Positions 2,281-2,430 of a DNA stretch of 7,908 nt are shown piece by piece (the first letter of the stretch is position 1; the number at the start of each line of letters is the position of its first letter). The translations under genes and the position numbers were made by a program. The stretch comes from a virus (lineage: Duplodnaviria; Heunggongvirae; Uroviricota; Caudoviricetes), in the IMG/VR virus record IMGVR_UViG_2660238398_000003; one strand, 5' to 3'. The notes under the pieces are model-generated. The model did no database searches. It had not been told where the DNA came from and worked only from the letters and a program-made list of their open reading frames with translations.

Positions 2281-2323
2281 CCTTCAATTATGCCCTCAGC
2301 CTTCAATTATGCCCTCAGCCTTC
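2281..2323. repeat. Perfect tandem duplication, 2 x 19 bp (ccttcaattatgccctcag) inside the Q gene
   Basis: Read directly: copies at 2281-2299 and 2300-2318, with 5 further matching bases. Confidence 0.95.
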
Positions 2324-2391
2324 TGTAACCTTTTCCCGATATAACCATCCGAGCAGCAATGCTTACTTGCCAGTGACATGAATGTCATACC

Positions 2392-2430
2392 ACATACATA
2401 ATAATCTACTACATACATAATAATCTACTA
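2392..2430. repeat. Perfect tandem duplication, 2 x 19 bp (acatacataataatctact) inside the Q gene
   Basis: Read directly: copies at 2392-2410 and 2411-2429. Confidence 0.95.

Follow-up and report, generated by a model that had tools for sequence, protein, structure and literature searches.

The Q-type antiterminators closest to the gene described here are QuuD (YbcQ) of the cryptic E. coli prophage DLP12 and Q21 of phage 21. The S-R-Rz/Rz1 lysis operon of DLP12 responds to a Q-type antiterminator and also to RpoE and Hha, according to the account of DLP12 given in PMC7918800. That account cites Rueggeberg et al. 2013 and 2015 and Garcia-Contreras et al. 2008 for control of the operon, and cites Rueggeberg et al. 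2013 for control of the lysis cassette by Q. For Q21, the structural description in 10.1101/651190 assigns the torus that forms the nozzle to the N-terminal H1-H3 region, whereas the C-terminal half holds an HT[loop]H DNA-binding motif, with loop residues 105–121, and also a six-residue C-terminal RNAP contact. By homology, QuuD would be expected to load at a Q-binding element and to form a nozzle on the RNA-exit channel of RNAP.

We have analysed a quuD gene that carries two 19-nt tandem duplications and encodes a truncated protein as deposited. Judged from the sequence and its relatives, these duplications are very probably an artefact of assembly or gap-patching and do not represent a disabled Q. 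An earlier note on this DNA had proposed that, if real, they would be a lesion that locks the lysis genes off. It had overlooked that the two quuD duplications are part of a set of six that lies within positions 383–2430.

Results

Source contig and gene layout

The window, by which we mean the whole 7,908-nt stretch of DNA analysed, is the entire contig AOQK01000099.1 of the draft WGS assembly GCA_000397405.1, as determined by exact-protein look-up. It contains the late-control region of a DLP12-like lambdoid prophage of E. coli. The minus-strand gene order is ybcN, ninE, ybcO, rusA, ylcG, quuD and essD, with a porin moron on the opposite strand between quuD and essD; quuD closes the nin region and precedes the lysis cassette, with which it shares its strand. 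An Rfam scan of the window returned no match. The genes are as follows.

19–234, minus strand: essD holin (PF04971), intact; the first lysis-cassette gene that Q would switch on
895–2031, plus strand: prophage porin gene, ompC/nmpC-like, frameshifted as deposited, with a 304-aa product encoded by 895–1809
2220–2641, minus strand: quuD (Q-type antiterminator) as deposited, 422 nt, comprising the 384-nt gene plus 38 extra nt
2704–2868, minus strand: ylcG, frameshifted as deposited
2865–3227, minus strand: rusA
between rusA and ybcN, minus strand: ybcO and ninE
3677–4132, minus strand: ybcN
4616–5623, plus strand: alpha/beta hydrolase, with BD-FAE/Abhydrolase_3 matches
5973–7499, minus strand: large serine recombinase ybcK

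The first 18 nt of the contig precede the end of essD, and its start coincides with the essD/rrrD junction of relatives; the record therefore lacks the cassette's endolysin and spanin genes. Its other end lies upstream of emrE, which places the hydrolase gene and ybcK between the nin region and emrE. The 3.7-kb stretch with these two genes is held at 80% or more by only 172 of 5,426 complete genomes, and the arrangement is therefore a minority variant of the DLP12 locus. The tandem repeat at 7549–7571, which has an A+T-rich unit of 11 nt (2.1 copies, 91% match), is also found in strains UPEC132 and KC-Dl-1 and is an ordinary low-complexity feature.

Two perfect duplications in quuD

Both of the 19-bp duplications claimed in the earlier note were recovered at the coordinates it gave, by TRF, by a repeat finder and by self-comparison. 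TRF reported 2281–2323 with a period of 19, 2.3 copies and a 100% match, and 2388–2430 with the same period and copy number and a 95% match. The latter is perfect when placed in the correct phase, with 2392–2410 identical to 2411–2429 and a self-match that spans 2392–2430. In the former, 2281–2299 is identical to 2300–2318, and an additional 5-nt self-match (CCTTC) extends to 2323.

2392–2430: 19-nt perfect tandem duplication, ACATACATAATAATCTACT twice plus 1 nt; first in transcription order and the source of the frameshift
2281–2323: 19-nt perfect tandem duplication, CCTTCAATTATGCCCTCAG twice plus 5 nt (CCTTC); downstream of the premature stop

The junction sequences of this pair are GCCCTCAG joined to CCTTCAATTATG and AATCTACT joined to ACATACATAAT. 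Examples of words that cross the junctions are CCCTCAGCCTTCAATTATG and AATCTACTACATACATAAT, and the matching single-copy words are CCCTCAGCCTTCTGTAACC and TCATACCACATACATAATAATCTACTAATAAATC. At 4^-19 per position, about 3e-8 perfect 19-nt tandem copies would be expected by chance in 7.9 kb; such a copy is not a chance occurrence.

Effect on the deposited Q gene

The addition of 38 bp and the truncation of Q to 92 aa, both stated in the earlier note, hold for the deposited sequence. The open frame runs from 2363 to 2641 on the minus strand and encodes 92 aa, against 127 aa for native QuuD. The earlier division of this product into 76 native and 16 out-of-frame residues was off by one; there are 77 native residues followed by 15 out-of-frame codons and a stop codon at 2363–2365. 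The loss of roughly 50 C-terminal residues agrees with our count of exactly 50. The duplication at 2392–2430 alone produces the frameshift and the stop, and the duplication at 2281–2323 lies beyond that stop. Deleting either duplication singly does not restore the protein, whereas deletion of 2281–2299 together with 2392–2410 gives a gene of 384 nt and 127 aa that is 100% identical in nucleotide sequence to quuD of UPEC132.

Identification of the gene as a Q-type antiterminator was borne out by Pfam PF06530, by homology to Q21 and by the QuuD annotation of RefSeq relatives. In-silico restoration of the frame, a check proposed in the earlier note, yields QuuD as found in UPEC132, with homology to Q21 at an E value of 3e-8. 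The restored protein matches PF06530 over profile positions 1–118 of 118 (E 9.4e-54, 180.8 bits), while the deposited 92-aa product matches positions 1–77 only (E 2e-37). The complete C-terminal half is missing as deposited and is present once both extra 19-mers are removed. In a phmmer search against PDB, QuuD residues 8–88 aligned to Q21 residues 20–101 (E 3.2e-8; chains 6p18_P and 6jnx_P), and QuuD residue 77 corresponds to about residue 90 of Q21. With the motif located by analogy to Q21, the 50 lost residues would include the HT[loop]H motif and the C-terminal RNAP contact. Since both would lie in the lost part, a real truncation at residue 77 would plausibly abolish loading and leave a protein unable to bind the Q-binding element.

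Occurrence in other genomes

The query used for quuD was the 251-nt stretch around the duplications (window positions 2230–2480), of which the single-copy form spans 213 nt. Complete E. coli genomes with this stretch number 2,944; of their 2,945 matching records, none (0/2,945) reaches 99% identity to it. All of the E. coli matches listed span 213 nt and not 251, as do the six phage records listed of 37, phage 434 included; none of the 37 phage records exceeds 95% identity to the stretch. The quuD allele itself is approximately 90% identical in DNA sequence to the Q genes of viable lambdoid phages, phage 434 among them, and the intact gene therefore belongs to a family that is still used by functional phages.

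Both quuD junction sequences were absent from GTDB species representatives, and the first was also absent from metagenome contigs. By exact-protein look-up among ~15 billion proteins, the 92-aa Q occurs on this one contig only, and the same look-up placed the 304-aa porin and the 53-aa YlcG variant each on this contig only. At least 1,000 contigs carry the intact 127-aa QuuD, and short or partial entries for QuuD also exist in databases. Across the 12.2-kb locus of two complete genomes, the trivial 11-nt A+T-rich repeat was the only tandem duplication found. The Q segment occupies approximately one place per genome and ylcG likewise one, and the 5' end of the porin gene is sometimes present in two copies.

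Six duplications confined to one block

In comparison with UPEC132, the closest complete relative, the contig is 100% identical over 1–382 and 2811–7908, a total of 5,480 nt. Strains UPEC132, GN02350 and N50 are each 100% identical to the contig over 4200–7908. All differences private to the contig fall within 383–2810 and consist of six duplications of 19–33 nt, one complex indel and three SNPs. Besides the quuD pair, the features are as follows.

383–444: perfect tandem duplication of 31 nt without microhomology, by which the upstream half of a terminator-like hairpin on the minus strand is copied
483–555: 33-nt duplication with its copies split by a 7-nt unmatched filler, ACACCGC, at 516–522
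966 and 975: two private substitutions in the porin gene
1751–1795: 22-nt perfect tandem duplication inside the porin gene
1854–1922: 32-nt perfect tandem duplication plus 5 nt (ATGTC) inside the porin gene
2808–2810: complex change, made up of one substitution and a 1-nt insertion, which puts ylcG out of frame

Non-coding DNA upstream of essD holds the duplications at 383–444 and 483–555. The change at 2808–2810, which converts TTATAT to TGTTTAT on the minus strand, forms the right-hand edge of the error-laden block. A mismatch lies beside the copy at the filler-bearing junction, and a search of the window and the UPEC132 locus for a template of the filler gave none longer than 8 nt. Once the seven insertions are taken out, the contig differs from UPEC132 by only 3 mismatches in 7,744 nt. 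If the 10 private events were placed evenly, the chance that all would fall within 383–2810 (31% of the window) is 7e-6.

The six junctions form three pairs, 413 and 515, 1772 and 1885, and 2299 and 2410, whose members are 102, 113 and 111 nt apart, and the pairs are separated by 1,257 and 414 nt. When six events were placed at random within 383–2810, 83 of 3,000,000 placements (~3 in 100,000) gave three consecutive pairs at 100–115 nt, and 3,701 of 3,000,000 gave three pairs at 80–140 nt. Junction microhomology amounts to 5 nt at two junctions (CCTTC and ATGTC), 1 nt at two and 0 nt at one, with the 7-nt filler at the remaining one. The overlaps are 20–37 nt long when microhomology is included.

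Discussion

A probable artefact of unmerged overlaps

Each pair of duplications has the form A-u-u-M-v-v-B, which is the exact product of a short u-M-v piece concatenated, with the overlaps left unmerged, to a left neighbour that ends in u and a right neighbour that begins with v. To account for the observed layout, uniqueness and restoration to wild type, we infer that an assembler or gap-patcher stitched the contig between ~383 and 2810 from seven pieces. The pieces would be 1–413, 414–522, 523–1772, 1773–1885, 1886–2299, 2300–2410 and 2411–7908, and the three short ones may be described as follows.

414–522: putative piece of 102 nt of true sequence plus a 7-nt junk tail, from the junction spacing
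1773–1885: putative piece of 113 nt, between the 22-nt and 32-nt overlaps
2300–2410: putative piece of 111 nt, from the junction spacing and the paired layout

The first 19 nt of the piece at 2300–2410 would repeat the end of its left neighbour, and its last 19 nt would repeat the start of its right neighbour. This short piece lies within the Q gene, which would therefore carry one duplication at each of its ends. Neighbouring pieces would truly overlap by only 19–37 nt, probably too little for the assembler or gap-patcher to recognize, so that joining them end to end, or on a spurious 5-nt match, would leave each overlap twice in tandem. Overlaps this short fall below the word or minimum-overlap length of short-read assemblers, and where coverage is low, isolated reads or unipaths typically give pieces slightly longer than ~100 nt. 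The duplications do bound both ends of three short, roughly read-sized segments. The 7-nt filler and the adjoining mismatch resemble a bad read or contig end, and the filler, the 2808–2810 indel and the SNPs at 966 and 975 share the 2.4-kb block with the duplications, whereas none of these occurs in the other 5.5 kb. In the real strain, quuD would then be an ordinary gene, intact at 127 aa and the same as in the strain's closest relatives, with nothing disabled, and breakage of the porin gene by its 22-nt and 32-nt duplications probably has the same cause.

Two observations run counter to this explanation. First, 5-nt microhomology at two junctions is above chance for blunt concatenation and is also a hallmark of slippage, although the same microhomology would result if a joiner took a short spurious suffix-prefix match as sufficient. 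Second, there is no obvious reason for a local assembly failure, with G+C content ordinary and the Q segment single-copy. G+C bias was rejected as a cause of such a failure, the error-laden block being no more A+T-rich than the error-free ybcK region. Repeat-induced misassembly of the Q pair is likewise unsupported, given that the Q segment has about one place per genome. Derivation of the SNPs from a paralogue was also rejected. The 966/975 substitution pair is in no match listed from the 2,138 complete genomes with that stretch, where the best matches listed reach 97.8% and one unlisted record falls in the band of at least 99%; the 2808–2810 ylcG change is absent among the matches listed from the 3,392 complete genomes with its stretch. 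A literature search for paired unmerged-overlap artefacts returned one tangential paper and not the exact pattern. The IMAGE paper (PMC2884544), in its passages on gaps and contig ends, deals with negative-length gaps and poor contig ends, not with this exact pattern.

Alternative origins of the duplications

We consider it quite unlikely that the duplications are real and independent slippage mutations in a decaying cryptic prophage, leaving a 92-aa Q that lacks its DNA-binding half and loss of Q-dependent readthrough into essD-rrrD-rzpD. Tandem duplication at short direct repeats is a known product of slippage, and two of the six junctions have 5-nt microhomology; the other four, however, show only 0–1 nt of it or carry filler. 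Decay does occur in cryptic prophage genes, databases contain QuuD entries that are short or partial, and a real truncation would take away the HT[loop]H motif together with the C-terminal RNAP contact. Against this, decay would have had to generate six perfect, and hence very recent, duplications and four further changes in 2.4 kb beside 5.5 kb that is 100% identical to relatives. Genes already inactivated by a single hit would each have needed two, such second hits are not selectable, and no intermediate, such as a genome with a single duplication, was seen in thousands of genomes. The spacing of the three pairs at 102–113 nt is not predicted by slippage, flap processing or transposition.

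A single localised burst of aberrant DNA synthesis or repair in the late-control region would suit the tight clustering and pairing of events that are all perfect and hence very recent. Under such a burst, short single-stranded patches of ~110 nt could, for instance, have been annealed and ligated with unprocessed flaps at both ends, a process that is undescribed in E. coli. Unprocessed 5' flaps give rise to short duplications in FEN1/rad27 and polA 5'-exonuclease mutants. We know of no bacterial process, however, that duplicates both ends of 100-nt patches, and Okazaki fragments of E. coli are about ten times longer than the ~100-nt patches. We regard a real burst as very unlikely: poor sequence is suggested by the junk filler and by the private SNPs and indel near it, the contig is a small one from a draft assembly, and the variant is a singleton in all collections. 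Chimeras formed in vitro by polymerase template switching during library amplification and fixed in a low-coverage consensus would fit the microhomology at two junctions and the other private errors of the region, yet such chimeras are normally minority molecules that are outvoted in a consensus, and the regular pairing is better explained by the joining of pieces, so that this origin is highly improbable. Transposon target-site duplications or excision footprints can be dismissed, as the units vary from 19 to 33 nt and match no E. coli IS family.

Consequences for lysis control

With unmerged overlaps as the favoured origin, the duplicated quuD is most likely not a real feature of the organism, and its biological interpretation is therefore probably wrong. 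The proposal that a lesion locks the lysis genes off is unsupported by a draft contig on which six paired duplications, unseen in thousands of other genomes, sit in an error-rich block. Even if the truncation were real, "locked off" would be too strong for a DLP12 operon that also answers to RpoE and Hha in the description given by PMC7918800. Two hairpins in the window are candidate terminators for Q to override.

2040–2083, minus (Q-sense) strand: hairpin plus T-run, -27.3 kcal/mol, z -4.5; candidate terminator in the interval between quuD and the lysis genes
375–396, minus strand: terminator-like hairpin plus T-run just upstream of essD; candidate terminator

Read in the Q-sense direction, the first hairpin runs from 2083 to 2040 and the second from 396 to 375. 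The first lies close beyond the 3' end of the porin gene, which is on the opposite strand. A simple consensus scan found no sigma-70-like PR' promoter between quuD and this hairpin.

Were the duplications real, the strain would be without a Q switch for a lysis cassette that is linked to biofilm and vesicle phenotypes in K-12, and their clustering in pairs would point to an unusual mutational process. In the case of a patch burst, ylcG, quuD and the porin moron would have been lost in one event, through a clustered process undescribed in E. coli. As matters stand, the three apparent pseudogenes on this contig, quuD, porin and ylcG, should be left out of any tally of prophage decay. In other draft genomes, short tandem duplications that come in pairs spaced by roughly one read length are a useful flag for assembly error of this kind.

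Comparison with known systems

The locus can be compared with two known kinds of duplication. Unmerged overlaps of contig ends or patches are established in short-read drafts, and they resemble the present case in that perfect copies of 19–33 nt flank read-sized segments, in that a single stretch of a small draft contig holds all the copies, in the junk at one junction and in their absence elsewhere. Duplications from slippage or flaps, also well established, are alike in their size of tens of nucleotides and in the 5-nt direct repeats found at two of the six junctions here. They differ in that slippage and flap events scatter genome-wide, without ~110-nt pairs or filler, while most junctions here are without microhomology.

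Among antiterminators, Q21 of phage 21 (PDB 6P18, 6P19 and 6JNX) shares Pfam PF06530 (10.1101/651190) and sequence homology with QuuD, although Q21 has 162 aa against the 127 aa of QuuD and only the N-terminal two thirds align by sequence. The nearest counterpart is QuuD (YbcQ) of DLP12. The neighbourhood ybcN-ninE-ybcO-rusA-ylcG-quuD-porin-essD is shared, and the restored gene is 100% nucleotide-identical to the UPEC132 quuD, which encodes the 127-aa protein WP_001204794.1. The deposited gene differs from QuuD of DLP12 by its 38 extra nt and its 77 native residues, a difference that is probably artefactual.
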